A stretch of 64,000 nucleotides of DNA from an uncultured Thiotrichales bacterium (GTDB lineage: Bacteria; Pseudomonadota; Gammaproteobacteria; GCA-2400775). The notes under the pieces were generated by a model. The model did no database searches and was not told the DNA's origin. It worked only from the letters and a program-made list of their open reading frames with translations. The DNA lies in the NCBI GenBank assembly GCA_964617475.1, contig CAZTYM010000007.1, forward strand, positions 9,523 through 73,522. The letters are read 5' to 3'. Position 1 is the stretch's first letter. Each line of letters begins with the position of its first letter. Shown piece after piece: positions 6,274 to 47,947 of the stretch. The translations under genes were made by a program, and so were the position numbers.

Positions 6274-6707
6274 GGCCAGCCGTTGATTGCTGCAGTTTGC
6301 CCGTTGGGCACATGTTGGCGACTACCGTTGGCGTTGAGTATATAAGTGACGTTATTCGCTGTTGGTGTGCCAGGGTTAGGTGTTGCAGTTAACGAAAAGT
6401 TGGTTGCTGTCTGGTTGGTAATCGCGAGGTTGTAATAAACAATTGGGCCTACCGCGGGTGATCGATTCGTGTAGATACCAGCTGGCCCAAGAGCAGCACC
6501 AACGTAAGTAGGCGTGGGTTGATCAATATAAAATTCTTGCATTCTTGCTGCAGCTTCAACCAAAGCCGTTTGTGCGTCTGCCTGCCTTGTCTGGTTGAGT
6601 TGATAAAGATAACCGGGATAGGCTATACCTGCCAAAATAGCTATGATAGCCACTACTATGACTAGCTCGATTAAAGTAAAGCCGGCTTGTACTCTACGTG
6701 TTGTCAT
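6270..6707 (-). CDS. pilE: Type IV minor pilin PilE-like
   Basis: Prepilin leader MTTRRVQAG|[10 protein letters not shown] with Gly-1, Phe+1 and Glu+5. It is the last gene of the fimU-pilVWXY1E-type operon. It has no cysteines, so no C-terminal disulfide loop. Confidence 0.8.
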
Positions 6708-9292: not shown

Positions 9293-9800
9293 CTGCTGCG
9301 ACAGGGTCTTCGTCTATAGTATAAATCGATTGCAAAATGCGTCTGGCACCGCTGTTATTGCTGGCGTTGATTGTCGTGTTACGAAATAGGTAAATTTCGC
9401 CGCCCGCGTCAGGAACGTCGTTACCAATAACAACAGATTCGCCCGGCAAGGTTTGAGGGCCAATGTATTCAATATAGGTTCGGGCAAAAAACCCATTTGC
9501 ATCAAAATTTGTATCGACGGTAGCTTGCTGGCGAAGAAGTTCAACAGGATTGATATTTTCGTCGAAATCGTTAAAAGCAACAGGCGTGGTGGCAATATCA
9601 TCTAATGCTACTTCAGTTGCTTTTAATTGGTTTTCTGCGGCAGAAAGTGCCTGGTTTTGTAACTGTAAATTGCTCGCCATGAGTGTTTCCAAGCCACTTT
9701 GTGACATGCCGGCAACACCGATGATTGTCATGACTAGCAGGATTATCAAGCTAATAATTAGCGCTGCACCACGTTGTTTATGCTGTTGAGAATGATGCAT
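9276..9800 (-). CDS. pilX: Type IV minor pilin PilX
   Basis: 174 aa. The leader MHHSQQHKQRG|AALIISLIILLVMT has no Glu+5, as in Pseudomonas PilX. It lies between pilW and pilY1. Confidence 0.75.
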   Translation of the reverse strand: MHHSQQHKQRGAALIISLIILLVMTIIGVAGMSQSGLETLMASNLQLQNQALSAAENQLKATEVALDDIATTPVAFNDFDENINPVELLRQQATVDTNFDANGFFARTYIEYIGPQTLPGESVVIGNDVPDAGGEIYLFRNTTINASNNSGARRILQSIYTIDEDPVAAGGGNG

Positions 9801-9802
9801 TG

Positions 9803-10819
9803 TTAAATCACCTCATTGTTGCGCAACATGACAGTATTAGTATAAAGCTGACGACGAAAACGATCGCCGTTTCCAGGCGTGCTTAGATCTAAATTAGAAT
9901 CACCCATCACATAGGTGTTATTGTTTAAGTAGCCGCCAGCCCCAGGGCACTCATCCCGAATTAATAACCAATACCGCACGGCTCTCACCTGGCTCCAATC
10001 GGTAACGTTATTAGCGTCTAAGTACTGGTCGATGACACCATCATTATTGGTGTTGACGCCGTATTGCACCTGAAGGTTTTCAACGCCGCGTATGACTTCT
10101 TCGCGTGTCGGAGTACCATTTACATCTAAAGCCAGACGATAAAGCGCAGGTACTGGAACCTGAATGCCGTCACAGTCGGCAGTTTGTGCACCAGAGTAAT
10201 ATGAGTAAGCTTCAAGCCAGCTATAGGTAATAGGCGTGTCTGTGAGATTACTAAAATTGTTGTTGTTATCTACAATCTCTTGTCGGCTAGCAACAAGCCT
10301 AATTTCGCCGTTAAATGGCGATGATTTCAGCAGTAAACCACGGTCATTCGTCATATCTGTTGCTGTGAGATTGGTTTGCCGAGAATAGCGCACAGTCAAC
10401 ACATCACCGGATAGGTAATCACCATCAGCAGCAGGTGAACCGAGTGCGTCAATGCAACCTGCATAACCAGTTAGATTATCATTAAGACCAAACACACCGC
10501 GTTCGACCATGCGGCCCCAACGATTATCGTTGAGACTTCCACATAGTCCGTCGGGATTGTCGGCAATCCCGGAAATTATGGAAGGATCTGCATTGCCACC
10601 CATGTATCCAGCTAAGCGTAGATCTTTATTAATCAAGTTTAGTGCATAGCGACCATTTTCTTGCATACGAGCGATGCTATCTTGAATGAGGTAACTTCGC
10701 TTAGCACTGATATAAACCTGAATCAGTCCTGTAATTAAGACAATACTGATAGTAATGGCAATCATTAGCTCGACAAGGCTAAAACCGCGGTGTTTGGGTG
10801 ATAGTGTCTTCATCATCAT
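9803..10819 (-). CDS. pilW: Type IV minor pilin PilW
   Basis: 338 aa. The prepilin leader is ...KHRG|FSLVELMIAI. Its size and position match PilW. Confidence 0.8.
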   Translation of the reverse strand: MMMKTLSPKHRGFSLVELMIAITISIVLITGLIQVYISAKRSYLIQDSIARMQENGRYALNLINKDLRLAGYMGGNADPSIISGIADNPDGLCGSLNDNRWGRMVERGVFGLNDNLTGYAGCIDALGSPAADGDYLSGDVLTVRYSRQTNLTATDMTNDRGLLLKSSPFNGEIRLVASRQEIVDNNNNFSNLTDTPITYSWLEAYSYYSGAQTADCDGIQVPVPALYRLALDVNGTPTREEVIRGVENLQVQYGVNTNNDGVIDQYLDANNVTDWSQVRAVRYWLLIRDECPGAGGYLNNNTYVMGDSNLDLSTPGNGDRFRRQLYTNTVMLRNNEVI

Positions 10820-10825
10820 AGCCTA

Positions 10826-11341
10826 CTAAGGAGTCACATTAAGAGTGACATTCTTCACCGGGTTCAATGCCGGGTTGGCGCCGGCAGCTTGGTTGTTGGG
10901 CTGTTGACTGGCATTCCATTGCACTATGATCTGATACTGAACAGGGTTAGCGTTAACACGTGTTACTTGCCCTGCTCCTTGTGGCAAAACCGTGTTTATC
11001 GAAGTAATCCACTGGTTAAGATCAAAACTGGCAATCTGGCCAGGAGTACATGCCGCATTAGAACAATCTTGATTAGGCGGATTGTTACCTAAGTTAATAA
11101 GGTAGTTGTTATTGCCTGCTTGAATAGCATAATCGCTATTGGCTCGAATTCTTTCAGCCAGATCTTGTGCCAGCAAAACTGCTTGACTGCGCAAGTAGGC
11201 ATTGTGTCCAGATGCTAAACCACGCGTTTGTAAGCTGGCCAGTGCAAGCAGGCCAACAGACAGAATGACTACGGCAATAAGCACTTCTAAAAGAGAGAAG
11301 CCTTTAGAGTAGCGTGAATTCTTGTTATTAAGGACAAGCAT
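10826..11341 (-). CDS. pilV: Type IV minor pilin PilV
   Basis: 171 aa. The prepilin leader is ...YSKG|FSLLEVLIAV. It lies between fimU and pilW. Confidence 0.8.
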   Translation of the reverse strand: MLVLNNKNSRYSKGFSLLEVLIAVVILSVGLLALASLQTRGLASGHNAYLRSQAVLLAQDLAERIRANSDYAIQAGNNNYLINLGNNPPNQDCSNAACTPGQIASFDLNQWITSINTVLPQGAGQVTRVNANPVQYQIIVQWNASQQPNNQAAGANPALNPVKNVTLNVTP

Positions 11342-11789
11342 CAGTAATCGCTATCCGACCGGTAGCTTCAATTTTGATCACGCGGTCATGGCTTACACTA
11401 TGCGCATCGCTTACGGTAAAGCAATCAGTATCGCTTTGTAAGTTACCACTACTATTAAACGTAATGGTCGCATCAATATTTGGTGTAATAGACAGGCCAT
11501 TTTGAATGGCTTCGGTACTGCGCAGTAGTGAGTTATCTGATGCTAGATTGACATTCCAGCCATCGCCCCAACCATTAGCAAAGCTAGATAGCGTGACGCT
11601 AGCGTTTCTTTTTATGGATTCGCTGCGCGCAAAACTAAGGTCAGAAATGAGCTGGTTCGTTTGAGCAGTAAGGCGATTATTTTGTACCATGCTATTAAAG
11701 CCAGGCACAGCAACAGTCAACAAGATAGCCGCAATAGAAAGCGTTATCATCAGCTCGATTAAAGTAAATCCGCTATTTTTTTCTCTCAT
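11328..11789 (-). CDS. fimU: Type IV minor pilin FimU (GspH/FimT family)
   Basis: The ATG at 11789 gives the short prepilin leader MREKNSG|FTLIELMITL. The track ORF extends to a TTG at 11894, which would add 35 non-leader-like residues. I prefer 11789. Confidence 0.75.
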   Translation of the reverse strand: MREKNSGFTLIELMITLSIAAILLTVAVPGFNSMVQNNRLTAQTNQLISDLSFARSESIKRNASVTLSSFANGWGDGWNVNLASDNSLLRSTEAIQNGLSITPNIDATITFNSSGNLQSDTDCFTVSDAHSVSHDRVIKIEATGRIAITDACP

Positions 11790-11923
11790 GGTGCAAGTAA
11801 AACCGATGCTTTGGAAAGTGTCAAAAATTTCGACACCAAACCCGATTAACAAAATAGAATTTCCGATAAGTGGTTGATTATATTGGTTTGTCAAAAATGT
11901 AACGCCCTAATACAGCATAGCGT

Positions 11924-30186: not shown

Positions 30187-31329
30187 GTGAATTTAGATAA
30201 GTTGTTGCAAATTATGATTGATGAGCAGGCATCCGATCTGTTCATCAGCGTCGGTTCGCAACCATCGGTCAAAATTAATGGCGTGCTTTATTCGCTGGAA
30301 GGCCCTGTTTTGGATAGCGACACAGCAGAAAAACTTGTCTATGGGGCTATGCGAGATGAGCAAAAAGAACAGTTCGATAGAGAATTTGAATTGAATTTTG
30401 GCATTCTTCGCGAAGGTATTGGCCGTTTTCGAGCCAATGCATACCGTCAACAATATCGGCCCGGTATGGTTATTAGACGTATTGAAACTAATATTCCGAC
30501 TGTTCAATCACTGGGTTTACCCAATATTGTTGAACGTATGTCTATGGAAAAAAGAGGTTTAATCCTGATAGTGGGTGCAACCGGGGTCGGTAAATCGACA
30601 ACCATGGCCTCAATGGTAGGGCATCGTAACCGTCACGGTAGTGGTCACATAGTTACAGTAGAAGACCCTATTGAATTTGTTCACAGTCCGCAATGCTGTG
30701 TCATCACGCAAAGGGAAGTGGGCATAGATACGAAGTCGTATCAAATGGCGCTGCAAAATTCATTGCGACAAGCGCCAGATGTCATTGTCATTGGTGAGAT
30801 TCTCGATAGTACTACCATGCATCATTCCCTGGCGTTCGCGGAAACGGGCCATTTATCGCTAGCGCCACTTCATGCAGCAAATTGTTCACAGGCACTAGAG
30901 CGCGTCATCAATTTTTTTCCACGTGAACGTCGAGATGAGATATTGATGGATCTATCTCTTAACTTGCGCGCTATCATCGCGCAGCGTCTGGTGCCAACAA
31001 TCGATGGTGAAGGTCGCGAGTTGGTATTAGAAATTTTAACTAATAGTGCTTTAGCGACTGATTTAATTGCTCAGGGGCGCTTTGATGAAATTAAAAACCT
31101 CATGAAAAAATCTGCACAACATGATATGTGCACATTCGAACAATCACTTTATTCATTATATAGTGAAGGCAAAATATCTCAGGCAGATGCTTTGCAATAC
31201 GCGGATTCGCCGAATGAGTTACGACTGATGATTAAATTTAATTCAAACCAGGGTGCACGAGATGATGAATCTAAAAGTGGCCGGTTTTCGCCTTCAAGAG
31301 ACAAGGGCGCACCCTATTTTACTGGCTAG
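30187..31329 (+). CDS. pilU: Type IV pilus retraction-family ATPase PilU
   Basis: 380 aa with a GTG start. The Walker A GATGVGKST is the PilU form, whereas PilT has GPTGSGKST. The N-terminus and RQAPDVIVIGE, AETGHL and LHA regions closely parallel P. aeruginosa PilU as I recall it. Confidence 0.85.
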   Translation: MNLDKLLQIMIDEQASDLFISVGSQPSVKINGVLYSLEGPVLDSDTAEKLVYGAMRDEQKEQFDREFELNFGILREGIGRFRANAYRQQYRPGMVIRRIETNIPTVQSLGLPNIVERMSMEKRGLILIVGATGVGKSTTMASMVGHRNRHGSGHIVTVEDPIEFVHSPQCCVITQREVGIDTKSYQMALQNSLRQAPDVIVIGEILDSTTMHHSLAFAETGHLSLAPLHAANCSQALERVINFFPRERRDEILMDLSLNLRAIIAQRLVPTIDGEGRELVLEILTNSALATDLIAQGRFDEIKNLMKKSAQHDMCTFEQSLYSLYSEGKISQADALQYADSPNELRLMIKFNSNQGARDDESKSGRFSPSRDKGAPYFTG

Positions 31330-36317: not shown

Positions 36318-37190
36318 TTATTTGGATGAAAAGCTACCAGTGCCCGCAAACTCCCATACTCGGCTGATAACTAAGACATCAGTGTCAGCCCGCATTTCCG
36401 TAGGAAAGGGAGCGAAGGGAGCTGCAAGTTTAACGATGCGAATGGCTGCATCATCAAGCAATTTTTTTCCTGATGATCTAACTATTGTAATGCTTTCTAC
36501 AGAACCGTCGGGATACAAGCCAACATCGAGCTTTAGCTTGCCGCTTAGTTTGCGACGACGTGCTTCTTCTGGGTAATTGAGGTTGCCAATTTTTTCGATC
36601 TTTTTCTGCCAAGATTCAAAATAGGCGGCATCTCTAAACTCTTTTGTCTTGGTTGTAATCAGCCGGCGGCGTTGGTCGCTGCTTTGCGCGGTTTTAAATT
36701 GGTCTATTTCGCTGCTTACGCTGGCCAAAGCCAAACTACGTGATACTAACTCGTCGGCGTTGGGTAGATTTTCTTTCGGTTTGATATCTTTTTGTGGAGA
36801 AGTTTCTGCTACAACGGCCTTTTCTTTTTTTACCGTGATAGTGTCGATTTTTTGCTGGCTGACAGGTGGAGCGCTGGCTTGGCGAATTTGTTGGTTTGGC
36901 GATGGGATTGGTATATCGACAGCTTGTGACGCTGGGCTGGCGGCGCTTTGGTCGAGAACCGCATCGTTACCGCCGTCTTGATTGGCCTGAGCGAGTACTT
37001 TTGCGTCAGTTTGATCTTGTTCGCTACGCTGGTGAACCAGGGTGATGTCCATCGTGTGGCGCGGAGCTTGGGAATAGTCTTGCGGAGAAAAGCTAATTCC
37101 TAGGACGACAAATGCATGCAGCAGCAGTGCGAAAAACAATGCTAGAGTTAAATGATCACTTCTTGGGTTCGCCGAAATTGCGCTATTCAT
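36318..37190 (-). CDS. tonB: TonB-family energy transducer (TonB3-like by position)
   Basis: It has an N-terminal anchor LALFFALLLHAFVVLGI and a Pro/Gln-rich linker. Its C-terminal TonB domain is NLNYPEEARRRKLSGKLKLDV...RSSGKKLLDDAAIRIVKLAAPFAPFP. It occupies the gshB-to-algH position of P. aeruginosa TonB3. Confidence 0.8.
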   Translation of the reverse strand: MNSAISANPRSDHLTLALFFALLLHAFVVLGISFSPQDYSQAPRHTMDITLVHQRSEQDQTDAKVLAQANQDGGNDAVLDQSAASPASQAVDIPIPSPNQQIRQASAPPVSQQKIDTITVKKEKAVVAETSPQKDIKPKENLPNADELVSRSLALASVSSEIDQFKTAQSSDQRRRLITTKTKEFRDAAYFESWQKKIEKIGNLNYPEEARRRKLSGKLKLDVGLYPDGSVESITIVRSSGKKLLDDAAIRIVKLAAPFAPFPTEMRADTDVLVISRVWEFAGTGSFSSK

Positions 37191-37701
37191 TTTGCAAATT
37201 GAGCTGCTTGTTGATCGCTAAAGCAAGACTACCATTGAATATGCCTGTAATAATAGCGACCGTTACTAGCACTGGCAGTAGGTGAAATAGCGCGTCATGA
37301 GGAATAAATAAGGCATAGGCGACCCAAAATTGCGCCAGAATATGCGCGATGGCTGCTATCACGCTATACCCCATAGCGCTAAGCTGTTGATTTAAAATAA
37401 GTTTAGCAGCACCTATTGCGATCAAGCTGGCACATGCACCACTGGCGCTAAGCATAAAAGTGGGTGACAGAAAGCTGCCAACAATGAGGCTAGCGATAAG
37501 GACACGTAGTGACGATACCCAGACCGCCGTACGCCAACCAAATTGCAAAAACACGACTATAGTGACGACATTGGCTAGTCCAATTTTTATTCCAGGTATT
37601 GGGCTGGGAATCGCACTCTCAAGTACATGAATGGCAATAGCCAGGGCGGTAAACCAGGCGATGACATGGTCGTGACGCTGGCTGGAAACGGTTGCATGCA
37701 T
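37183..37701 (-). CDS. Gx transporter family membrane protein (Hpre_diP_synt_I-like)
   Basis: 172 aa with 5 hydrophobic segments and no soluble domain. It has the family-typical pairing with a NusG-domain-II protein immediately upstream. The call rests on architecture and neighbourhood, not strong motifs. Confidence 0.55.
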   Translation of the reverse strand: MHATVSSQRHDHVIAWFTALAIAIHVLESAIPSPIPGIKIGLANVVTIVVFLQFGWRTAVWVSSLRVLIASLIVGSFLSPTFMLSASGACASLIAIGAAKLILNQQLSAMGYSVIAAIAHILAQFWVAYALFIPHDALFHLLPVLVTVAIITGIFNGSLALAINKQLNLQNE

Positions 37702-37715
37702 AAGTGCGTTAACGT

Positions 37716-38078
37716 TTAGAAATTAATGCTGTCATAGCGGCTGAGACTTTGGCCGATAACGCTTAAGCTTATGCGATTGGGTAGACAAGCACTGGCTTCA
37801 CCATTTTTACTTAACCAACCTTTGTGTATGCACTGTTTGTTTTTGCATGGTGATTGAATAAATGCGACTTTGCCGTTCTTAATTCGAATTAGACTTTCGC
37901 CTAATGATCCTTCGACACTGAGAGTATGGTCGCGCAACAACGAAAACTGTTGAGGTTTTTCATTCGCTACCTGCACGCTAGCATCGGTACCTCGATGGTT
38001 TGGCCCCCAAAAAGCGCTATAAAGAAAAGGCAGTGTTGCCAACGCTAGCACAATAACGATGATATCGGTTCGTCTCAT
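37716..38078 (-). CDS. NusG domain II-containing protein (DUF1312)
   Basis: 120 aa with an N-terminal TM helix. The motif SPCKNKQCIHKGWLSKNGEASACLPNRISLSV matches the DUF1312 pattern C-x4-C...G-W-I...C-L-P-N/H-R/K. Confidence 0.65.
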   Translation of the reverse strand: MRRTDIIVIVLALATLPFLYSAFWGPNHRGTDASVQVANEKPQQFSLLRDHTLSVEGSLGESLIRIKNGKVAFIQSPCKNKQCIHKGWLSKNGEASACLPNRISLSVIGQSLSRYDSINF

Positions 38079-39184
38079 AGTTCTGGGACAATGGTGACGT
38101 TCGGTTTTTGGCTAGTTTCATAGGTGATGCGTTTGGCAAGCGTGGGTGTTATAAATACGTTGCTGTTTTTATCAATGATCATAACGTGCCTGATATTCAT
38201 ATTCTTTGCAATGTCTTGCCACTGATCGATGCCTGCTATAAATAAGGCTGTCGCGGCTGCATCTGCTACTGCGCCATTATTGTGAACAATGGTCACAGAT
38301 GCAATATCGCTCGCTGGGTATCCCGTGCGTGGGTCGAGAATGTGGTGATATCGCTTACCTTCATGTTCAAAATAACGTTCATAATCGCCCGATGTAAAAA
38401 CCGCTTCATCACCCTCAATTGTCAGTGACGCAAAAACACTTTGGTTTCGTGGGTGCCGTATGCCTATTTTCCATGGTCGTGCGCCAGCGCTACCTATAGC
38501 ACGAAGATCACCACCTGTATTGATAATGGCATTATTGATATTACGTTCTTTCAGTAGTTCTATGCTCTGGTCAACAATCACGCCTTTAGCGAAACCACCT
38601 AGGTCAAAACTGACAGGTTTGCCGCTGTTAACCAAGATGTGATCGCCATCAAAGCTAAATTTCTCAGCACTGGGTATTAGGCTCATTACGTTCTGAATTT
38701 CCGTAAGAGAGGGAGGTGCAATGGGCGTGTCTTCGCTATGAAAGCCCCATAGCTCACTGAGTTTGCCGAGTGCAGGGTGAAACAGCCCTTGGCTTTGTTT
38801 TGATAGAGATAGTGCAAGCGCTATAAGTGCAGCGTCGCCACTTTCTATAGGGCTACGACCAGTGGCACTGAGTGCCTGGTTAATTTCGCCCAGTTTGCTG
38901 GGTTGCCAAGCGTGCCAATGTTGATGAAATGCTTTCATTCTGGCGCGAATATCAGCGCTTAAGGCGTCTCCTTGTTTTGTTTCAACATCAAATAAACTCA
39001 ATTCCACCAAAGTGCCAAAGGCAAAGATTTGGCTGCGATAGATGTTTTCCTGTTGATCTTTGCTGCATGCACTTAGGAGGCTGAGGCAGAAAACGTAAAC
39101 AGCGATATGTAGTGATGTTTTAAGCCAGCTTTTGTTCAATTGCGTCAAATAGCATTGCGCTAATGTTGATATTGTAAATAGCAT
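38075..39184 (-). CDS. apbE: FAD:protein FMN transferase ApbE (lipoprotein)
   Basis: It has ApbE motifs FDLGGFAKG, TSGDYERYF and HHILDPRTGYP, and a lipobox LSLLSAC. The ATG at 39184 overlaps gshB by 65 nt. In-frame TTG codons at 39148 and 39139 (MNKSWLKTSLHIAVYVFCLSLLSAC) are alternative starts. Confidence 0.85.
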   Translation of the reverse strand: MLFTISTLAQCYLTQLNKSWLKTSLHIAVYVFCLSLLSACSKDQQENIYRSQIFAFGTLVELSLFDVETKQGDALSADIRARMKAFHQHWHAWQPSKLGEINQALSATGRSPIESGDAALIALALSLSKQSQGLFHPALGKLSELWGFHSEDTPIAPPSLTEIQNVMSLIPSAEKFSFDGDHILVNSGKPVSFDLGGFAKGVIVDQSIELLKERNINNAIINTGGDLRAIGSAGARPWKIGIRHPRNQSVFASLTIEGDEAVFTSGDYERYFEHEGKRYHHILDPRTGYPASDIASVTIVHNNGAVADAAATALFIAGIDQWQDIAKNMNIRHVMIIDKNSNVFITPTLAKRITYETSQKPNVTIVPEL

Positions 39185-40067
39185 CGAGTTGTCTTACACA
39201 GGTCGGACTGGTTACGTTAACTTCTGTTAGATAGTCACCGATAACATCAATACCGACAAATAATAAGCCACGTTTAATCAATTCTGGTCCTACCTGCGCG
39301 CATATCCATTTGTCTCTATCGCTAAGCTCGACCCCTTTACCGCTGCCGCCAGCAGCAAGATTGCCTCTGCTTTCTCCGTCGGCCGGAATGCGCGCTAAGG
39401 CATAAGGCACAGGGACACCATTAATAAGTAATATTCGCTTATCACCTGATGAAATTTCGGGAATAAATTTTTGTGCCATCACCGTGCGACGCGCATTACG
39501 GCTGACCGTTTCAATAATGACATTTTTATTTGGGTCGGTGGCGCTGGTTCGAAACACTGATTCGCCACCCATGCCGTCTAGTGGTTTAACGACAGCTTCT
39601 TGTTGTTCCTCTATAAACGCACGAATTTGTTTAGGGTCACGGCTAATCAAGGTATTAGCACAGCATTGAGGAAACCAGGATATAAAGGCTTTCTCGCTGA
39701 CATCTCGTAAACTTTGTGGTTTATTAACAACCAGGCAGCCTTGTTGTTCAGCTAGTTCTAAAGCGTAAGTGGTGTAAATATATTCCATATCGAAGGGAGG
39801 ATCCTTGCGCATCAGGATGACGTCGAGCCTGTGGAGTTCATGTTCTTGCTCATCGCTAAGATCGAACCAATTCGTTTTATCATCTCTGACTGTAAGCGCA
39901 CGGCTCGTACAATGGCTTGTTCCAGCTTGAATTGAGATATCCGACTGTTCCATATATCGAAGCTCGTAACCTCGGGCCTGAGCTTCGAGCAACATAGCTA
40001 ATGTGGTGTCTTTAGCAGTATTGATGCTACTGATGGGGTCCATGATTACCCCTAAACGAAGAGTCAT
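39120..40067 (-). CDS. gshB: Glutathione synthetase
   Basis: 315 aa. The N-terminus LGVIMDPISSINTAKDTTLAMLLEAQARGYEL and the ATP-grasp C-terminal half are typical of prokaryotic GshB. Confidence 0.95.
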   Translation of the reverse strand: MTLRLGVIMDPISSINTAKDTTLAMLLEAQARGYELRYMEQSDISIQAGTSHCTSRALTVRDDKTNWFDLSDEQEHELHRLDVILMRKDPPFDMEYIYTTYALELAEQQGCLVVNKPQSLRDVSEKAFISWFPQCCANTLISRDPKQIRAFIEEQQEAVVKPLDGMGGESVFRTSATDPNKNVIIETVSRNARRTVMAQKFIPEISSGDKRILLINGVPVPYALARIPADGESRGNLAAGGSGKGVELSDRDKWICAQVGPELIKRGLLFVGIDVIGDYLTEVNVTSPTCVRQLDAIYNINISAMLFDAIEQKLA

Positions 40068-40265: not shown

Positions 40266-40685
40266 ATGGCTGATGGCAATCAGCTACTAGAAGGCATCAC
40301 GATAGTATTGGCAGATGATAGCCAAACCATACGCCATACCGTTGAGGCGGTATTGGGCGCGGCTGGCTGTCGCGTTGTATCTGCAGAGGATGGTTTCGAT
40401 GTTCTTGCAATGGTAGTTGATGAGATGCCGCACCTGGTGCTGCTCGATATCAATATGCCCAGATTGGACGGCTATCAGGCTTGCGCGCTCATAAAACAAA
40501 GTGATCGCTGTGGTCATATTCCTGTGGTGTTATTGTCCGCCCAAAATAGCGTATTTGATCGAGCGCGTGGCAAGGTGGTGCGTGCTGACAATTATCTCGT
40601 TAAGCCGTTTAGCCGAGACGAATTGATTGAAGTGGTTCGATGTCTTACTAAAAAAAGCCAGTCAGGCGTAGATGGGGTGATGTAG
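40266..40685 (+). CDS. pilG: Twitching-motility response regulator PilG (CheY-like)
   Basis: It closely parallels P. aeruginosa PilG (DDSQTIRHT...EDGFDVLA...MPRLDGYQACALIK...YLVKPFSRDEL). It is divergent from gshB. The track ORF begins at a TTG at 40245. Confidence 0.85.
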   Translation: MADGNQLLEGITIVLADDSQTIRHTVEAVLGAAGCRVVSAEDGFDVLAMVVDEMPHLVLLDINMPRLDGYQACALIKQSDRCGHIPVVLLSAQNSVFDRARGKVVRADNYLVKPFSRDELIEVVRCLTKKSQSGVDGVM

Positions 40686-41197
40686 TGGAGGAGAGACGTC
40701 AACATCAGGATCGCCGCAGAAGTGATCGCTACGGAAGCTTTGACAGCGAGCTATATGTTGCTTTCCGTTGTGCTGAATACCATTTTGTTTTTGAAAAGCA
40801 AGAAGTGATGGCAATAACGCCATTACCTAATATTATTTCATTGCCCTTGAGCCATCACTGGTTTGTTGGTGTTACTAGTATCAGTGGCTATATAGCCTGC
40901 GTTACTGATCTGAGCGCATATCTAAACCTGGAGCCGGCAATCACCAAGGAAGGTGCCAAATTGATTTTGACTGCGCATGGCGATAATGTCTTTGGTCTAG
41001 TTGTGGATTCAATTGTTGGGGTGATTGAATGTCAGTCTTGTGAACGTTCTCGCGCAATTTACCCAATTGAAATAGAAACTTTTACTTCTCGTCAGCGTTG
41101 TAATGGTGATCAGTGTTATGACGAGTTCGATATTAGGCGTTTGTATCTAGATCCTAAGTTCCAGAATGCGGTGACACTAACGTCGCATAGTTCCTAA
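40685..41197 (+). CDS. pilI: CheW-like coupling protein (PilI position) with Arg-rich N-terminal extension
   Basis: 170 aa with a GTG start sharing one base with the pilG stop. It has a CheW-like core (YVAFRCAEYHFVFEKQEVMAITPLP...FVGVTSISGYIACVTDLSAYL...FGLVVDSIVGV). Confidence 0.6.
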   Translation: MEERRQHQDRRRSDRYGSFDSELYVAFRCAEYHFVFEKQEVMAITPLPNIISLPLSHHWFVGVTSISGYIACVTDLSAYLNLEPAITKEGAKLILTAHGDNVFGLVVDSIVGVIECQSCERSRAIYPIEIETFTSRQRCNGDQCYDEFDIRRLYLDPKFQNAVTLTSHSS

Positions 41198-41233: not shown

Positions 41234-43264
41234 ATGTCTAGTTTCGCCAGATACTTGCTGACACTATTTGCCGGTCGAAAAAGCTGGCATTTACTGTTGT
41301 TTTTATTTTTGATTATGCAACTTATTGCTGGTTTTTGGTTGTTACATCAGGAAAAACAGGCGGAGTCAGCTTACGTTGCGCAGCTACATGAACTGCTCGA
41401 AGCATCGGTGCGAATAGTGAGATATGCCGTTACATCGAGTCAACTGGATTTAGATTCGCTAGATAAATTAAGTGCAGGGGTCAGGCGTTATCAACGCGGT
41501 TTGGATACCATTCGTGCTTCTATATTGGCGAAAGAACCAGCAAGGGCGCAGTCCATAGATAGGCTTAATGCTGTATGGGTTCCTGTTCGCGATGCTGCAC
41601 AGAGATTATTAGGTCATACCAATGATCTGGCCGAGCTAAGAAAAGCTGTAGAAGAAACGGATCAACGTTTACCCGATGTGTTGTCACAATATGAGTCGGT
41701 AATTGGTGATCTGCAAGCAACGGTCAATGATGCATCAGATTTAAAGCTATTGCGTGATCAGCAACTTATTCTGCATAGAGTCGCTGCGAATATAAATACC
41801 GTCACAGGTGGAATATTGGGTGGCGTCGATGTTAACGCGCGTAGCGCAATATCGGGCTCAATCGAGTCAGATTTATTCTTGCTAGAAAAAAGTCTAGGTT
41901 TTTTGACTATAGGGGATGGTGAAGCCAGTCAACAGTCAGATGTATTAATTGGAGAGGTTTCCTTACGTATTCAAATTGAAAGTATGATAGAACAGCTGAA
42001 AGAGTTAGCTGGCTCAGTACGAACAGTTATCGAATCAGCAGCTGTTATGAGGGAAGTGAATAAATATTCTCAGGTGCTGGTAGAAGACGGTGGCGCATTG
42101 CTTAATCCTATTCAGGTGTTGGCAAAAAATAGCACTATGCGTTCTGGGAAAAAAAATATCTATACCGTCTGGATTGCATTTGCTGCAATATCTTTAGTTC
42201 TCTGGTTAATCTATGTTGGGTTTGAGCACATGCTTCGAGCTCGCTCAATTGCTGCGGCTGCCGAAAAGGACAAAGAGCATTTGCAATCGATGGTTGACGA
42301 TGTAGCAAGACAAATGGCCAGTTTTTCCGAAGGGGATCACGGGGTTAATGTTCGTAGCAAGACATATAGTGATCAACATCTTGTGGTGCAAGCTAACCGC
42401 ATGATTGAACATGTCTCAGCAGTTGACAAACAAATTCAAGAAAATTATTTGCCCATTATCAAGCGTGTTGCCGAAGCGGACAGCGAAATTGCCAGTTCTA
42501 TTGATCGTCAAACAAATGATATTGCACGCCTGAGCGTCGAATTAAATAACATCGTTGCAAGCAAAACATCGGGCTCCGCGTTGCTTTCCAATCACATGTC
42601 AAAAATAAATGGGCAACTGCAACAGCTAAGCACGCAAGTAGGTGCATTGAAAAACCATATCATTGGTCGCGATGAGCCGGAAGGAGATCGTGTTAGTGCC
42701 CATGAAGTGCGGCAACTACAATCCCATATAACGGATCGATTGGGGTCACTTTCTGATTTGTCCAAGCGTATTCATCAAGATGTCATAGATGCGAGTTCTT
42801 TGCTTGCTACGGCTATGTCTGGTGATCGCTCTATGCGTCGTAGTATTGAACAGCTGCAAACGTTAACTGGTCGTTACTTAGGGATGGTAGATGATATTGA
42901 AGCATTGCTCGCGAATATGGATACCGCGGTAGCGGCGTTACATACAGCAGATACTGAAAAACATGATGTTAAAGCTAAGTTTGATGCATTGGATCATGCC
43001 GTATCAGATGCGCTACTTGAAGCTGAGAATGGCAGTCAAGAGTTACTGGCAGCAGTTAATAACAGTGATGGTAAGCAAGCTGAACAGGCCGAGAGAGTAG
43101 CGCTGATTCTTGATGAGTTGCAAGATGGCAATCAACGTATGGCTGTGGTGGCAACGACCAGTGATATTGGCACAAAGGAATTAAACAAGTTGGCGTCAAA
43201 GCATTTGAAAAAAGTGCTTTCAAATGAGAATCAAAGCTCCAACAAAGAAGGGCCTTCTTCATGA
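41234..43264 (+). CDS. PilJ-like transmembrane chemoreceptor homologue with degenerate signalling tip
   Basis: 676 aa, versus about 680 for PilJ. TM1 is near residues 20-40, followed by an approximately 270-aa helical periplasmic region, TM2 near residues 309-331, and a post-TM2 segment SFSEGDHGVNVRSKTYSD resembling PilJ EIADGDLTVRARVTED. I cannot find the canonical MCP tip (LALNAAIEAARAGE-GRGFAVVA-EV). Confidence 0.55.
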   Translation: MSSFARYLLTLFAGRKSWHLLLFLFLIMQLIAGFWLLHQEKQAESAYVAQLHELLEASVRIVRYAVTSSQLDLDSLDKLSAGVRRYQRGLDTIRASILAKEPARAQSIDRLNAVWVPVRDAAQRLLGHTNDLAELRKAVEETDQRLPDVLSQYESVIGDLQATVNDASDLKLLRDQQLILHRVAANINTVTGGILGGVDVNARSAISGSIESDLFLLEKSLGFLTIGDGEASQQSDVLIGEVSLRIQIESMIEQLKELAGSVRTVIESAAVMREVNKYSQVLVEDGGALLNPIQVLAKNSTMRSGKKNIYTVWIAFAAISLVLWLIYVGFEHMLRARSIAAAAEKDKEHLQSMVDDVARQMASFSEGDHGVNVRSKTYSDQHLVVQANRMIEHVSAVDKQIQENYLPIIKRVAEADSEIASSIDRQTNDIARLSVELNNIVASKTSGSALLSNHMSKINGQLQQLSTQVGALKNHIIGRDEPEGDRVSAHEVRQLQSHITDRLGSLSDLSKRIHQDVIDASSLLATAMSGDRSMRRSIEQLQTLTGRYLGMVDDIEALLANMDTAVAALHTADTEKHDVKAKFDALDHAVSDALLEAENGSQELLAAVNNSDGKQAEQAERVALILDELQDGNQRMAVVATTSDIGTKELNKLASKHLKKVLSNENQSSNKEGPSS

Positions 43265-46200
43265 CAAAGATGAAGAAAGACATTTTGGAAACGCATACCG
43301 TTTTTAAACAAATGGGATCAGTTTTATTGGCGTGCCACGCATTAATAGAAGAGAAAAAAGAATGGGTTTCAGAGGAAGAGTTAGATCATTGTGTACGTGA
43401 ATTATCTTGCGTAGAAGGTGCGTTAAATCTAATTGGTAATACGACTTCTGCCTTATTATCTAATGAAATCAGTTCAGCTATTCGACTAGCTCAAAATGAA
43501 GAGAGCACAAATAAATCGACCGCTCTGATGATGTCGGCTAGCGCATTAAAAATATTGCTCGAGTCGATTAAAGAAGGTTTGTTTACTGCTGACGCAAATT
43601 ACCGACTGCTCTCGGTGATAAACAAACTCAGAGCGTTGCAAGAAAAAAAACCTTTGCCAGCGAGCGAAGTGTATAACATTGATCTAGACGTAGTGCCGGT
43701 AAACCAGAATTTAGAGGCGAATCACCGAGATTTTGCAGAGGTAGCGAAAAAACAAGGGCCAAAGCTTCAAACGGCGCTGTTGTCATGGTTTCAGAACTGT
43801 CAAAGCGCTGCTGCAATTGATGCCTTGGTTGATATTGCCGACAGTTTGCGTTTGTCGGCTTCTGAACGGCCTCATATACAGTTTTTCGAGGTTATTGCTG
43901 CACTAATTGACTCTCAGCGAGGCTGCGCGCATGTCAGTCAATCTATTCGTTTGTTGCTAGCATACGTCGAACGCTACGTCAGGCAACTGGCAGATATTGA
44001 AACTGAGCAAGGGTATCTGCCAACGACGATAACAAAAGAAGCTTTGTACCATATTGCCGCAAACGCTTATCAACGTAGTGATCGGGTAAAAGCTATTCTT
44101 GGTCGATACGGTTTACGCGACAGGCGTAGTCGCAAGCGAGACAAGCCCGGGGGGGAAGGATTGCAACCTGCGTTTCTCACTGGTGGTGGCGATAACGTTA
44201 AATCAGAATCTGGCTTGCAAGCGCTTAGAGAATGTCGGCGTGAGCTATCGAGTTTGGAGAGAGATATCGAAGCTTGGGTGTTAAGTCCAGACAAAGACAA
44301 GTTATTTACTGCGGCATATGAACGACTTTATAGGATTAGACACTGTTTTGATTTATTGGATATGTCAAGGCAAGCAAATGTTTGCGAAAACTTGCAAAAG
44401 GTATTGCTGGCAATTCATCAGTCACCTGAGGATAAGGATGGTGCCGTTCAACAATTAGCTGAAAGTATCGCTGCGCTGTCTTGTTCTATTGATGTAATAA
44501 CTTCTGCAGATGGTGCTCCTCCGATATCTATAAGTGAGTTATTAACAACAGCAGAAAGGCCATTTGATGAAACTAGTGATGGTGGCCAAGATATCGTTCA
44601 AGAACAAACGAAAGCAAGAAACGAAAACACAATTGAGCCAGAAGCAGTAGTTGATAATGATATAGAGGCTGTTAGTGATTTTTTTGAAGATACAGAAAGT
44701 TTGTTAGTTGAGTTCGATTCGCTTATCGAAACTTCAGAGTTGCTTTCGGTTTCAGACGATGATATCTCAGCACCTGAAGAAGAAAGTATGCCTTTGAAGC
44801 AGGTGCATGATTTATCTGAGAGCTTTTCTATCGAAGCTGCGGATTTATTGCATCAGATGCAGCAGCAACTAAACCTAATGCAAGGTAATATCGCTAGTGA
44901 GGAACCTGTCAACGCAATATTGCGGTTATTGCACACTTTGAAAGGGGCAGCGCGCATTGCTGGTCACGCAAAACTAGGTGATATGTCGCATGGCTTAGAA
45001 TCGACCTTGTCTTCAGTAGTATCAGGCATACTTCATATGACTCCGGAAATAGCGGAGTCAACGCGACAATCTATGGTCGCTATGCAGGCTTTGGTTTCTA
45101 GTCAAACTAGTGTCAACGAAGAACATGACATTTTTTTAGAATCTGAAGGCGAGAGCGAAGCCTTGGTTGCAAAAGAACACGAACATAGTGTGGAAGAAAA
45201 GCATGCTGTTGCTAGCGTGGCGTCAGAGCGTCGAGAAATACCCATAGCCCGGATGTTGCAACTTAATGCTGAAAACTTATTAGGACAATCATATTTGTCT
45301 GCAGAAATTCTACAGGCGATGTCTGCCGTAGCCGAGTTTGACCCTATTATTCACCGCTTATCAGATAAGTTCCACGATAAAAATATTCCAAAGGATAGCC
45401 AAGTGCGAATAGGTGAGGCGATCAATGATCTACGATTGGCCGCAAATCAGGCTTTACGATGTATTGATCAGGTCGAAAAGCGCTTGGATCACTTGCATAT
45501 ATCAGAATCGACGCTTAGGCAAACACTACTGACAGAAAAAATGGTGGCAATAGAGTCTGACGTTGTAGCTTACCATTCCCTTGTAGAACAGACTGCGAGT
45601 CAACTCGGCAAGAAAGTGTCCTTGCGCACGCATGGCTTAGGTTTGCGTATAGATCGCAAAGTATTATCAACCTTATCTGCAGCCATCGGACATTTAGTCC
45701 GCAATGCTATTGATCATGGTGTTGAGATGGATACTGTTCGTATTCATTCAGGTAAGCCTGAAACTGCCACCTTATCCATTGATGTCAAGGTTGATATCGA
45801 CGGTATCAACATTTCCGTAACTGATGATGGTGCTGGTATCGATTTACGAGCGATATGGAGAAAAGCTTTTGCGAAAAACCTTGTTAACGACAATGAAGTT
45901 TTTGACGAAAGTCGCGCATATTATTTTTTATTTGATGCTGCGTTTTCAACAAAAACCCTTGTCACTCAAGTCTCGGGTAGAGGAGTGGGTCTTGACGCAG
46001 TTAAAGCAAATATTGACCGACTAGGCGGGAAAGTAGGTGTAGACAGCGAAATTGGTCATGGGGCACGGTTCTGGCTCAGTTTACCAGTCCATTATGGTGT
46101 TGTACCGCATTTGATTTTTAAAGTCGGCGATCACCGATTTGGCCTGCCAGGGTTATCTGATAAGGTGGTTGTAGAAATTGACAGTATCGATTCTGAGCTA

Positions 46201-46926
46201 GAGGTTCACGGTAAAACCTATAGATGTATCGATTTATCAGATCAGTTGGGCTTGCCTCAACCATTGCTATCAGGCCAATCATGGCGAGCAGTTTTATTTG
46301 AGTATCAAGATGTTAACTATGCATTGATTGTTTCTCAAGTAGAAGGTGTAGAGAAGGTTACTAGTGATGCGCCAGTGGGACAACTACAACAGGCCGAATA
46401 TTTGCTTGGAATCGGCCTTTTGGAAGAAGGTGGTCTACTGCCTATTTTAAATTTGGCTTACTTTTTAAATAATGATAGCGAGCTGGCGGAGGTTAACCAC
46501 CAGTCTAATAATAGAGCAAAAGATCATTTGGCACAGGCGGTTTTAGTTGTGGATGACTCGTTAACCATCCGACGATACTGTGAAAACTTATTGCGTTCAA
46601 ATGGGTACAGCGTACTACTAGCCAAATCTGCTGAAGAAGCTTTGACGATGGCAGGTGAATCAAATATCGATATATTGCTAACTGACCTTCAATTACCAAA
46701 GATGGATGGTTGTCAGTTGATAGACGAGCTTCGCAGATTGACCGCATATAGTGACTTACCAGCAATACTTATCAGCGCTAGCCCACGTGATGAAAAAATT
46801 GTGCAGCAGCACAATATATCAAGTTGGTTAAGTAAGCCTTATACTGACCAAGAGTTATTCGACACTCTAGCAGCTCTAACGCCGCGACGGGAAAATGGGA
46901 ACTCTACTGACGATGCCATCGACTAA
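43261..46926 (+). CDS. chpA: ChpA/CheA-like hybrid histidine kinase (Hpt - HATPase - CheW-like - receiver)
   Basis: 1221 aa. It has an Hpt motif LLHTLKGAARIAGH (His codon 44932-44934), N-box HLVRNAIDHGVE, G1 VTDDGAGID and G2 GRGVGLD. It also has a CheW-like region and a C-terminal receiver VLVVDDSLTIRR...DILLTDLQLPKMDG...SKPY. It overlaps the PilJ-like stop by 4 nt. Confidence 0.85.
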   Translation: MTKMKKDILETHTVFKQMGSVLLACHALIEEKKEWVSEEELDHCVRELSCVEGALNLIGNTTSALLSNEISSAIRLAQNEESTNKSTALMMSASALKILLESIKEGLFTADANYRLLSVINKLRALQEKKPLPASEVYNIDLDVVPVNQNLEANHRDFAEVAKKQGPKLQTALLSWFQNCQSAAAIDALVDIADSLRLSASERPHIQFFEVIAALIDSQRGCAHVSQSIRLLLAYVERYVRQLADIETEQGYLPTTITKEALYHIAANAYQRSDRVKAILGRYGLRDRRSRKRDKPGGEGLQPAFLTGGGDNVKSESGLQALRECRRELSSLERDIEAWVLSPDKDKLFTAAYERLYRIRHCFDLLDMSRQANVCENLQKVLLAIHQSPEDKDGAVQQLAESIAALSCSIDVITSADGAPPISISELLTTAERPFDETSDGGQDIVQEQTKARNENTIEPEAVVDNDIEAVSDFFEDTESLLVEFDSLIETSELLSVSDDDISAPEEESMPLKQVHDLSESFSIEAADLLHQMQQQLNLMQGNIASEEPVNAILRLLHTLKGAARIAGHAKLGDMSHGLESTLSSVVSGILHMTPEIAESTRQSMVAMQALVSSQTSVNEEHDIFLESEGESEALVAKEHEHSVEEKHAVASVASERREIPIARMLQLNAENLLGQSYLSAEILQAMSAVAEFDPIIHRLSDKFHDKNIPKDSQVRIGEAINDLRLAANQALRCIDQVEKRLDHLHISESTLRQTLLTEKMVAIESDVVAYHSLVEQTASQLGKKVSLRTHGLGLRIDRKVLSTLSAAIGHLVRNAIDHGVEMDTVRIHSGKPETATLSIDVKVDIDGINISVTDDGAGIDLRAIWRKAFAKNLVNDNEVFDESRAYYFLFDAAFSTKTLVTQVSGRGVGLDAVKANIDRLGGKVGVDSEIGHGARFWLSLPVHYGVVPHLIFKVGDHRFGLPGLSDKVVVEIDSIDSELEVHGKTYRCIDLSDQLGLPQPLLSGQSWRAVLFEYQDVNYALIVSQVEGVEKVTSDAPVGQLQQAEYLLGIGLLEEGGLLPILNLAYFLNNDSELAEVNHQSNNRAKDHLAQAVLVVDDSLTIRRYCENLLRSNGYSVLLAKSAEEALTMAGESNIDILLTDLQLPKMDGCQLIDELRRLTAYSDLPAILISASPRDEKIVQQHNISSWLSKPYTDQELFDTLAALTPRRENGNSTDDAID

Positions 46927-47947
46927 CAGTGCAAAGCTCGGTTTGTTAGTTTGCAGCTCCTTTGCTGAGTCACGCTTGTCGACGCCATTAGCAGAAGCAG
47001 GCTGGCAAGTTGTAGCGAAAGTAATTTTGGCTGATAGCGATTCAGATATTGGTAGCTTGCTAGCGGCGGATGTGTTGATAGTCGACCTGGATGGGGCGAA
47101 TCAAGCACAGCTTCAGTGGCTTAACGATTTGATTGGTCATGAGTCCAGGCCGGTAATTTTTAATGACGCGAGTAGTGATCAAGCTTGGCTCGCAAATTTG
47201 ATTAGTAAACTTGAAGAGCTTCCAGAAACTAGTCGGTTTGCTAAGGTGGTTGAAAATGACGCAATTTCGAAGATAGACCAAACTATTCCAGATGATTCCA
47301 TCCTTGCAACGCAAGCAATTGATGGGGCTGCAGAGTTTTCAGGAATTGATGGAAAAAATGATATTGAACAAGGTGATCAAGAATCCGATGTGAGTATATG
47401 GATGATTGCTGCTTCTCTTGGTGGGCCAAAAGAGTTAAGAGATTTATTTTTAGCTGTTCGGCCAGATTTGCCTGTGTGTTTCTTTGTATCCCAACGTATC
47501 GCGATGGAACATATTGATTCTTTGGTTAGCTATCTTGCGCGTTATAGTCGTTACGATGTGTCTGTGCTTGCCAATGGTATGTCGGTGTCTAAAGGCAAAA
47601 TCATTCTTGTTCCTGATGGTTATCAATTTATTGTTAGTGAAGATGGTAATGTTTCCGCATCTGAAACTGCTAATGAAGATGGCGATGAATTAGATGTGAA
47701 TATTGCTGCATTAGCAAATGCCCGTGGAAGCAGTGCTGGTGTTATGATGTTGAGCTCGATCAGTGAAATAGGCGTGAAAGGTTGCGAGCAAATGCTAAAC
47801 GAGGGTGGCAGGGTATGGCTGCATAATAGTCTGCCTCAATATTTTAGTCAGATCACTTCAGAGCAGTATGGTGATCGTGTCGTAACAGCTACTGCGGCTA
47901 CTTTGGCTGATCGATTTAATTTGCTCTATTCAGATATCTCAGATTAG
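46895..47947 (+). CDS. CheB-like methylesterase-domain protein (ChpB position), probably catalytically degenerate
   Basis: The C-terminal half aligns by eye with CheB (IAASLGGPKELRDL...). The N-terminal 120 aa are receiver-like but lack the N-terminal acidic pair. The start (46895 or 46913) overlaps chpA. Confidence 0.5.
   Translation: MGTLLTMPSTNSAKLGLLVCSSFAESRLSTPLAEAGWQVVAKVILADSDSDIGSLLAADVLIVDLDGANQAQLQWLNDLIGHESRPVIFNDASSDQAWLANLISKLEELPETSRFAKVVENDAISKIDQTIPDDSILATQAIDGAAEFSGIDGKNDIEQGDQESDVSIWMIAASLGGPKELRDLFLAVRPDLPVCFFVSQRIAMEHIDSLVSYLARYSRYDVSVLANGMSVSKGKIILVPDGYQFIVSEDGNVSASETANEDGDELDVNIAALANARGSSAGVMMLSSISEIGVKGCEQMLNEGGRVWLHNSLPQYFSQITSEQYGDRVVTATAATLADRFNLLYSDISD

Follow-up and report, generated by a model that had tools for sequence, protein, structure and literature searches.

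The 64-kb window analyzed here (the whole stretch of 64,000 nucleotides [nt] from contig CAZTYM010000007.1 of an uncultured Thiotrichales bacterium) carries a five-gene Pil-Chp operon whose third gene encodes a receptor of 676 amino acids (aa). By position and by descent, this protein is the PilJ orthologue of a small uncultured Thiotrichales-like gammaproteobacterial clade. Its signaling domain can no longer be recognized as that of a methyl-accepting chemotaxis protein (MCP), and the tip of its cytoplasmic hairpin has been rewritten with nothing inserted or deleted. No protein-protein interface in bacterial chemosensing is more conserved than the one joining receptor, CheW, and kinase. The MCP tip and the CheW/CheA-P5 surface are usually held to be essentially immutable, and this is the premise of receptor identification and classification based on MCPsignal and heptad classes. 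An earlier note, made from the sequence of the window, had pointed out the divergent tip; the change spans the whole system (CheW, the P5 domain of ChpA, ChpB, and the absent PilK and PilH), which that note had not seen. We give a probability of about 60% to the reading that this is a minimal, nonadapting Pil-Chp pathway with a co-diverged receptor-kinase interface.

The operon encodes a response regulator, a CheW protein, the receptor, a CheA-type hybrid kinase, and a CheB-like protein. These genes and the flanking gshB are as follows:

39120-40067, - strand: gshB, the divergent synteny anchor (Pfam GSH-S), with the same neighbor in Pseudomonas aeruginosa, Aliikangiella, and loci L001 to L003
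40266-40685, + strand: PilG-like single-domain response regulator (Pfam Response_reg, E = 1.9e-25)
40685-41197, + strand: PilI-like CheW coupling protein, strongly diverged (Pfam CheW, E = 2.9e-14)
41234-43264, + strand: PilJ orthologue with an unrecognizable MCP signaling domain, 676 aa
43261-46926, + strand: short ChpA-like hybrid CheA kinase, 1221 aa (Pfam Hpt, HATPase_c, CheW, and Response_reg)
46895-47947, + strand: ChpB-like protein (Pfam CheB_methylest, E = 1.8e-19)

In the window, the order ruvX-yqgE(DUF179)-tonB-(three inserted genes)-gshB is followed by the operon (response regulator-CheW-receptor-ChpA-CheB), by rsmE-metF-ahcY, and then by metK. The bona fide PilJ loci of P. aeruginosa and Aliikangiella read ruvX-DUF179-tonB-gshB and then pilG-pilH-pilI-pilJ-pilK-chpA-chpB. 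Because this gene order is shared, the window gene occupies the PilJ position of a Pil-Chp locus without pilH and pilK. The same five-gene operon was found again in three metagenome-assembled genome (MAG) loci (L001 to L003). The stop codon of the receptor gene overlaps the start of chpA, and the gene order and the translational coupling with pilI and chpA were kept in every member of the receptor family.

The receptor is made up of the following elements, of which the HAMP-like linker was delimited by hhalign and family invariants and the turn by the AlphaFold loop:

41285-41347, + strand: first transmembrane helix (TM1)
41348-42148, + strand: periplasmic PilJ-type ligand-binding domain (residues ~39-305), between TM1 and TM2
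42158-42226, + strand: second transmembrane helix (TM2)
42290-42433, + strand: HAMP-like linker (residues 353-400), motifs QMAsFSEGDH and QANRM
42434-42598, + strand: membrane-proximal N-arm block (residues 401-455, IDRQaNDIARLS), at the place of canonical QEIAGA
42701-42808, + strand: N-terminal arm of the hairpin tip (residues 490-525), motif H-I-x-D-R-L-x-x-L-x-x-L-S-x-R-I-N-L-D-V
42809-42826, + strand: hairpin turn (residues 526-531, TAMSGD), in place of canonical M-A-G-E-A-G
42827-42913, + strand: C-terminal arm of the hairpin tip (residues 532-560), motif R-x-x-R-R-x-x-E-x-x-Q-x-L-T-x-R-Y
43079-43198, + strand: membrane-proximal C-arm block (residues 616-655, LILDELQDGNQR), which lies opposite the N-arm block and replaces canonical QQA[AS]SA...MNVIQEIT

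Two hydrophobic segments (residues ~18-38 and ~309-331) were found on either side of a helical periplasmic region, in agreement with the topology proposed earlier. When the AlphaFold model of the periplasmic domain was searched with Foldseek, it matched the crystal structures of the PilJ ligand-binding domain (7zjr, E = 8e-7; 8wdf, E = 1.4e-6) with target TM-scores of 0.76-0.79; phmmer of the receptor against 7zjr gave an E value of 0.04. A hidden Markov model (HMM) built from 120 canonical PilJ proteins scored the receptor family at 26-52 bits. Among the alignments listed, which covered three of the seven family members, the scoring stretch was the periplasmic half (45-49 bits), and no cytoplasmic domain was detected. 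With hhalign, the family aligned to a true-PilJ profile (seven proteins, all with MCPsignal and six also with the Pfam PilJ domain) over 618 colinear columns, from residue 11 to residue 654, with a probability of 99.6% and an E value of 1.4e-24. In the HAMP-like linker, FSEGDH aligned with canonical LADGDL(TV) and QANRM with (A)DSINF. The synteny, the periplasmic fold, and the colinear full-length alignment thus uphold the derivation of the receptor from PilJ, as the earlier note had proposed.

The open reading frame of the receptor was intact, and nt 42782-42874, corresponding to residues 517-547, read VIDASSLLATAMSGDRSMRRSIEQLQTLTGR, exactly as quoted before. Searches with the receptor gave no match to MCPsignal, PilJ (PF13675), or HAMP in Pfam even at E<=1, nothing relevant in NCBIfam, and, with phmmer against the PDB, no match for the cytoplasmic half. 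At the sequence level, the receptor has lost the canonical tip motif together with its GRGF, for which the window protein reads DRSM. A frameshift had been named beforehand as a finding that would tell against this observation. However, the remaining two frames of 42700-42960 were full of stops, tblastn with the canonical PilJ tip as the query found no match in the 64-kb window, and the identical receptor protein was present on 22 contigs from several sequencing runs; the absence of the canonical tip motif is therefore genuine. Six orthologues with 40-50% identity were colinear, with an unbroken reading frame and conserved blocks. Since the identical protein was found on 22 contigs and these orthologues are colinear, a frameshift or an assembly artifact was excluded. 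Nothing was found in favor of a frameshifted, misassembled, or decaying gene, and we rejected this explanation, to which we assign virtually no chance.

The rewritten tip could be aligned residue by residue. In hhalign, the window sequences LSDLSKRIHQDVIDASSLLATAMSG and DRSMRRSIEQLQTLTGRY aligned without gaps to INDIAEQTNILALNASIQAAMAGEA and GRGFAVVADEVQRLAERS, and the N-terminal arm aligned without gaps to canonical I-G-D-I-V-S-L-I-N-D-I-A-D-Q-T-N-I-L-A-L-N-A-A-I-Q-A. In this register, window residue i corresponds to residue i+16 of the canonical protein P0009 and to residue i-138 of Escherichia coli Tsr. The same gapless register was obtained in three hhalign runs (full length, cytoplasmic domain alone, and tip against the 120-sequence canonical profile), and the turn modeled by AlphaFold falls where the register predicts. 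The earlier claim that about 10 residues are missing therefore does not hold; the apparent deletion arose because the N-terminal arm had been aligned by eye with a shift of 8 residues, while the alignment of the C-terminal arm (SIEQLQTLTGR with VADEVQRLAER) was right.

According to AlphaFold, the cytoplasmic half forms an antiparallel hairpin of ~270 residues with equal arms and the turn at its midpoint. Helices 378-526 and 532-667 are joined by a turn at residues 527-530 in the full-length model, where the register puts Tsr G390-Q392. The cytoplasmic fragment modeled alone, as the earlier note had suggested, also gave the hairpin (turn at residues 527-531), at only medium confidence (predicted local distance difference test [pLDDT] score of ~70). 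The length of the hairpin lies within what we take to be the range of class 40H. In the model of the fragment, symmetric helix breaks were predicted at residues 479-483 (nt 42668-42682) and 573-578 (nt 42950-42967), ~47 residues from the turn. This position matches that of the canonical MCP glycine hinge, which we take to be Tsr G340, G341, and G439; conserved glycines are absent at the breaks.

Next, the residues of the tip were compared with those of canonical PilJ. P0009 is matched at E<1e-50 by over 7,000 canonical PilJ proteins, in which the tip is nearly unchanged, and canonical positions 514-571 are nearly all 95-100% conserved among the 120 proteins. Of these 58 near-invariant positions, the receptor family retains only about six (I499, D501, R532, Q542, L544, and R547); N514 is present in six of the seven members and missing from the window protein. 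The a/d core stays hydrophobic in both the N-terminal arm (pairs I/I, V/L, I/L, I/L, T/I, A/V, A/A, and A/L) and the C-terminal arm (pairs F/M, V/L, L/L, and I/I). Across the hairpin, nearly every surface residue has been exchanged, also at the tip, the part that in other MCPs docks CheW and CheA-P5 and makes trimers of dimers. In Tsr, the residues contacting CheW/CheA-P5 are F373, Q374, T375, N376, I377, L380, N381, A383, V384, E385, A387, R388, E391, V398, E402, and R404 (PMC13098124). The positions of F373, Q374, T375, N381, V384, E385, R388, E391, V398, and E402 have been replaced, mostly by dissimilar residues. The window protein has other residues at N376 and I377 as well, where N and L/I persist in most family members.

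The tip was then examined for conservation within the family. Mean pairwise identities among the seven members were as follows:

Residues 490-525, N-terminal arm of the tip: 63%
Residues 532-560, C-terminal arm of the tip: 59%, with 38% invariant positions
Residues 401-455 and 616-655, membrane-proximal blocks: 56% and 62%
Periplasmic domain: 51%
Residues 526-531, turn: 33%, with no invariant position
Mid-arms: 23-25%

The residues invariant in the family are H498, R502, L503, L506, L509, R512, I513, V517, and L524 in the N-terminal arm and R532, R535, R536, E539, Q542, L544, T545, R547, and Y548 in the C-terminal arm. This new, family-specific conserved motif on the tip arms argues against decay, and the pattern points to a remodeled surface under constraint or purifying selection. 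The word relic, used in the earlier note, does not fit a hairpin of full length with a preserved core register, the tip arms of which are the best-conserved segments in the family. Within the receptor family, gshB is 73-82% identical and PilJ is 40-50% identical. Between Pseudomonas and Aliikangiella, the cytoplasmic domain of PilJ is 80% identical and gshB is 64% identical; between the window and either of these two, the values are ~25% and 55%.

The partner proteins have changed as well. For the PilG-like protein, the longest open reading frame starts at TTG 40245, and gene callers start at ATG 40266. It shares 44-48% identity with PilG of P. aeruginosa and Aliikangiella versus 31-33% with PilH, and by eye the DD, D, and K-P motif of a receiver, for the acid pocket, the phosphoacceptor, and the conserved Lys, are present and are ordered and spaced as usual. 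It is the single response regulator of the operon, from which pilH and chpC are absent.

The Pfam CheW match of the PilI-like protein was over the threshold but partial (profile positions 2-95 of 138). The E value against Thermotoga maritima CheW was 0.0025, and a word-indexed search found only two relatives of the PilI-like protein among 5.8 billion proteins. In CheW, E38 and R62 form a salt bridge, and both have been implicated in receptor binding by suppression, pull-down, and cross-linking (PMC3828127, PMC13098124). Their equivalents in the window protein are Ala43 and Ser67. In all four family loci, A or S stands in place of E38 and S, N, or H in place of R62, whereas the PilI proteins of Pseudomonas and Aliikangiella, taken as canonical PilI sequences from the loci of canonical PilJ, keep both. 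CheW residues V36 and I39 of the hydrophobic groove, as well as G57 and G63, are retained in the PilI-like proteins. One further feature is peculiar to this family:

41030-41116, + strand: Cys4 motif C116-x2-C119 ... C139-x4-C144 (PilI-like residues 116-144)

The four cysteines are invariant in the window protein, L001 to L003, and P0038 and absent from canonical PilI and E. coli CheW; they could form a zinc-binding or redox-sensing site. We also considered a charge swap between the tip and CheW and rejected it as unconvincing, the tip being just 2-4 charge units less acidic than the canonical tip and the net charge of the PilI-like protein being normal.

The ChpA-like kinase has a FimL-like N terminus, one Hpt domain, the kinase domain, a CheW-like P5 domain, and a receiver. 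Its N terminus matched FimL_2nd, a family typical of ChpA, and faintly FimL_C. The kinase retains the HTLKGAA histidine, all four boxes (N, G1, F, and G2), and an intact receiver domain. The P5 domain is diverged, with a 16-residue deletion relative to canonical ChpA. The protein has 1221 aa, compared with 2809 residues in P. aeruginosa and 2307 in Aliikangiella as called; the phosphotransfer-domain array in its N-terminal half (43261-44800) is trimmed to a single detectable Hpt domain.

The changes extend to adaptation. Orthologues suggest that the true start of the ChpB-like protein is Met7 at 46913. Its N terminus gave no Response_reg match in Pfam, and phmmer of the protein against the PDB gave no match. 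When it was aligned to the CheB structure 3sft via a four-sequence family profile, the nucleophile Ser174 was found to be kept (ASLGGP), an invariant Arg201 stands at the position of the catalytic His (QRIA versus QHMP), and the position of the catalytic Asp is variable. This is probably a pseudo-methylesterase with a degenerate receiver-like N terminus. No PilK/CheR gene is present in the operon. The strict methylation-site motif [ASTG][ASTG]xx[EQ][EQ]xx[ASTG][ASTG] was found in none of the seven receptor family members, and there was no conserved relaxed match; QEI[AT]GA and QQA[AS]SA, carried by all the canonical PilJ proteins examined, are both missing from the family. Methylation of PilJ in P. 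aeruginosa requires both PilK and ChpB, and the PilJ tip is thought to mediate the contacts with PilI and ChpA (PMC12632253). Methylation-based adaptation appears to have been abandoned in the window system: PilK/CheR is missing from the operon, no methylation consensus remains in the receptor, and in ChpB an Arg stands at the aligned catalytic-His position.

These results are best accommodated by the minimal, nonadapting pathway named at the outset. The PilJ-type sensor and transmembrane module would drive the full-length hairpin, and the remodeled tip arms would form a lineage-specific interface with two docking partners, the PilI-like CheW that diverged alongside them and P5 of the short ChpA. 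The receptor would then control phosphotransfer from ChpA to the single PilG-like regulator and, through it, type IV pilus activity. With no need for recognition by shared adaptation enzymes or for mixing with other receptors, the constraint on the signaling domain may have been released. The joint loss of PilK, the catalytic His of ChpB, and the methylation motifs suggests such a link between the loss of adaptation and the released constraint. A more far-reaching version is that the interface was reinvented as an orthogonal one: an Arg-rich tip (HIxDRL...RINLDV / DRxxRRxxExxQxLTxRY) would dock a CheW protein without E38-R62 and with Cys4, possibly a zinc or redox site, so that the coupling protein would itself be a sensor in an insulated, methylation-free pathway. 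We regard this as distinctly improbable.

Several points weigh against the favored reading. The cytoplasmic domain taken alone gave homology evidence that we rate as modest to moderate. Against the sharp profile of 120 sequences, it scored 29.7 in hhalign (E = 0.002, probability of 14%), and the tip alone gave an E value of 0.013. AlphaFold confidence was medium (mean pLDDT of 68-72, ~50 at the turn) and was based on six sequences. The turn is variable within the family, unlike that of any canonical MCP. The seven known members are all metagenomic, and a CheR gene or a second canonical pilJ gene elsewhere in the genomes is possible. Docking of the tip onto the PilI-like protein or ChpA P5 is itself putative. 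What we take to be the trimer-contact set of Tsr is largely replaced. At most of the CheW/P5 contact positions listed for Tsr, too, the window residue differs from that of canonical PilJ (PMC13098124). With both sets of contacts mostly replaced, array formation may be lost.

Some of these points would also be expected if an unrelated coiled coil had been placed behind a retained PilJ sensor and transmembrane module. Such a domain replacement would explain the lack of an MCPsignal match at E<=1, the failure of the 120-PilJ HMM to gain anything from the C-terminal half in the three members listed, the weak cytoplasmic score with the 120-sequence profile, and the low TM-scores of ~0.35, with large root mean square deviations, of the cytoplasmic model in Foldseek. 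However, the claim of cytoplasmic homology rests on the full-length alignment and on the more diverse seven-sequence profile with its controls. With that profile, the cytoplasmic domain alone scored 42.1 in hhalign (E = 3.3e-5, probability of 72%), reversed sequences scored ~20, and thirty heptad-block shuffles scored 22.0 +/- 4.1 with a maximum of 33.3, so that the score lies ~5 standard deviations over shuffles that preserve the heptads. The whole-length alignment is colinear, the size is the same (676 versus ~680-687 aa), the turn is at the equivalent position, and the core register, R532, Q542, L544, R547, and the HAMP-like GD/N motifs are retained. An intermediate state, in which the tip keeps NILA-N-AI, is provided by locus L008 (see below). 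The top PDB matches of the cytoplasmic model were the MCP cytoplasmic domains 3zx6 and 2ch7, a ranking that gives weak support only. Divergence in situ is therefore favored, because of the equal total length and turn position, the HAMP-like motifs, the symmetric breaks, and the 3zx6 and 2ch7 matches, and we consider domain replacement very unlikely.

The main rival is a receptor that has been uncoupled. Its hairpin would no longer dock the kinase, and the gene would have been kept for a periplasmic or membrane role in the pilus, such as PilA sensing or scaffolding, or for another coiled-coil partner; ChpA would be constitutive or would signal through the PilI-like protein alone. The replaced Tsr contacts, the loss of the CheW E38/R62 pair, the variable turn, the loss or inactivation of the adaptation enzymes, and the reduced operon with a degenerate PilJ in the independent L008 lineage would all fit. 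Yet the tip arms are the best-conserved part of the receptor, above the periplasmic domain, every member preserves the gene order and stays translationally coupled to pilI and chpA, and CheW still has V36 and I39 of its groove. The conservation of the tip arms in particular disfavors uncoupling, which we think unlikely, though it is to be taken seriously.

Of the known systems, PilJ of P. aeruginosa (PA0411) and of other gammaproteobacteria is close in its pilI-chpA position near gshB/tonB, its length, and its two-helix topology. Canonical PilJ also shares the periplasmic fold, the HAMP-like linker, and the long hairpin with the turn at the equivalent residue. It differs in the tip, of which the window receptor keeps ~6 of 58 positions, in the MCPsignal match, and in the methylation-type motifs. 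The system of Xylella fastidiosa, which we assume to have a canonical MCP domain in its PilJ and to keep pilH and chpC, likewise has no methyltransferase PilK and a shorter ChpA/PilL, and it still controls twitching. In contrast, the window operon is without pilH and chpC, and its receptor tip, CheW, and ChpB catalytic site are altered. The reduced Pil-Chp set of Xylella is pilGHIJL-chpBC, without PilK (PMC9956873). The Tsr-CheW-CheA core unit of E. coli (8c5v, 6s1k; PMC13098124) has the same components, a receptor hairpin, CheW with the groove residues V36 and I39, and CheA with P5, and the overall geometry is probably the same in the window system; the Tsr-equivalent contacts and CheW E38 and R62 are replaced in the latter.

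Divergence of this degree is rare, as had been supposed. In the word-indexed search of 5.8 billion proteins, the receptor had only five relatives, with 41-50% identity and no Pfam domain. An exhaustive HMMER search of 1.84 billion cluster representatives gave four matches below 1e-30, all of them within this small family, and 28 weak ones. Three of the four strong matches were full length (two already known and P0007, which was new), and one was a 136-aa fragment. Ten weak matches were scanned; all had at least a weak MCPsignal match and seven also had the Pfam PilJ domain. True PilJ proteins recovered as weak relatives had MCPsignal scores of 125-159 bits. The seven-member family comes from uncultured Thiotrichales and Gammaproteobacteria MAGs, and every named member is annotated as a hypothetical protein. 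No description of a PilJ or MCP protein with a rewritten tip was found in the literature.

A second case comes from a TARA ocean metagenome: P0022, the product of the gene at the PilJ position in locus L008. Its MCPsignal score was 20 bits, below the Pfam threshold, and its operon is reduced (L008 7326-14309: gshB, then cheW-pilJ-like-chpA, then rsmE, without pilG, pilH, pilK, and chpB). The gshB product of L008 is 68% identical to that of Pseudomonas and 56% to that of the window, which marks an independent lineage. P0022 and L008 thus resemble the window system in a PilJ-position gene below the MCPsignal threshold and a reduced operon next to gshB. They differ from it in a tip that keeps NILA-N-AI and F..DE, a CheW protein that keeps E38 and R62, and the lack of pilG and chpB. 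Degeneration of the PilJ signaling domain in reduced Pil-Chp loci may therefore recur. Together, the receptor family and L008 show that a receptor can leave MCP sequence space while its architecture, operon, and kinase stay intact, and domain-based censuses will score such systems as CheA without a receptor. If the tip still docks, the family would be a natural experiment separating required features (the core register and the groove hydrophobics) from historical ones (GRGF and E38-R62) and would offer a candidate orthogonal receptor-kinase pair. Another altered tip was seen in P0024 and P0033, from high-GC Gammaproteobacteria MAGs. Their PilJ-like tip (...MLSLNVSIRASL(N/A)..G....G..RFAEEV.KLA) is by eye longer than the canonical turn, and both proteins pass the MCPsignal threshold with 42-48 bits.

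Pilus genes were found elsewhere in the window:

6270-11894, - strand: complete minor-pilin and PilY1 cluster fimU-pilV-pilW-pilX-pilY1-pilE, downstream of ileS
30187-31329, + strand: PilT/PilU-like T2SSE ATPase

The cluster matched T4P_PilY1, PilW, PilX_N, N_methyl, GspH, and ComP_DUS in Pfam. Given this cluster and the ATPase, the organism has type IV pilus genes, and the cluster is likely the output machinery of the pathway. Between tonB and gshB (37183-39184, - strand), the three genes that are extra relative to the Pseudomonas and Aliikangiella order encode a heptaprenyl diphosphate synthase component I-like protein, a NusG domain II protein, and an ApbE flavin transferase.

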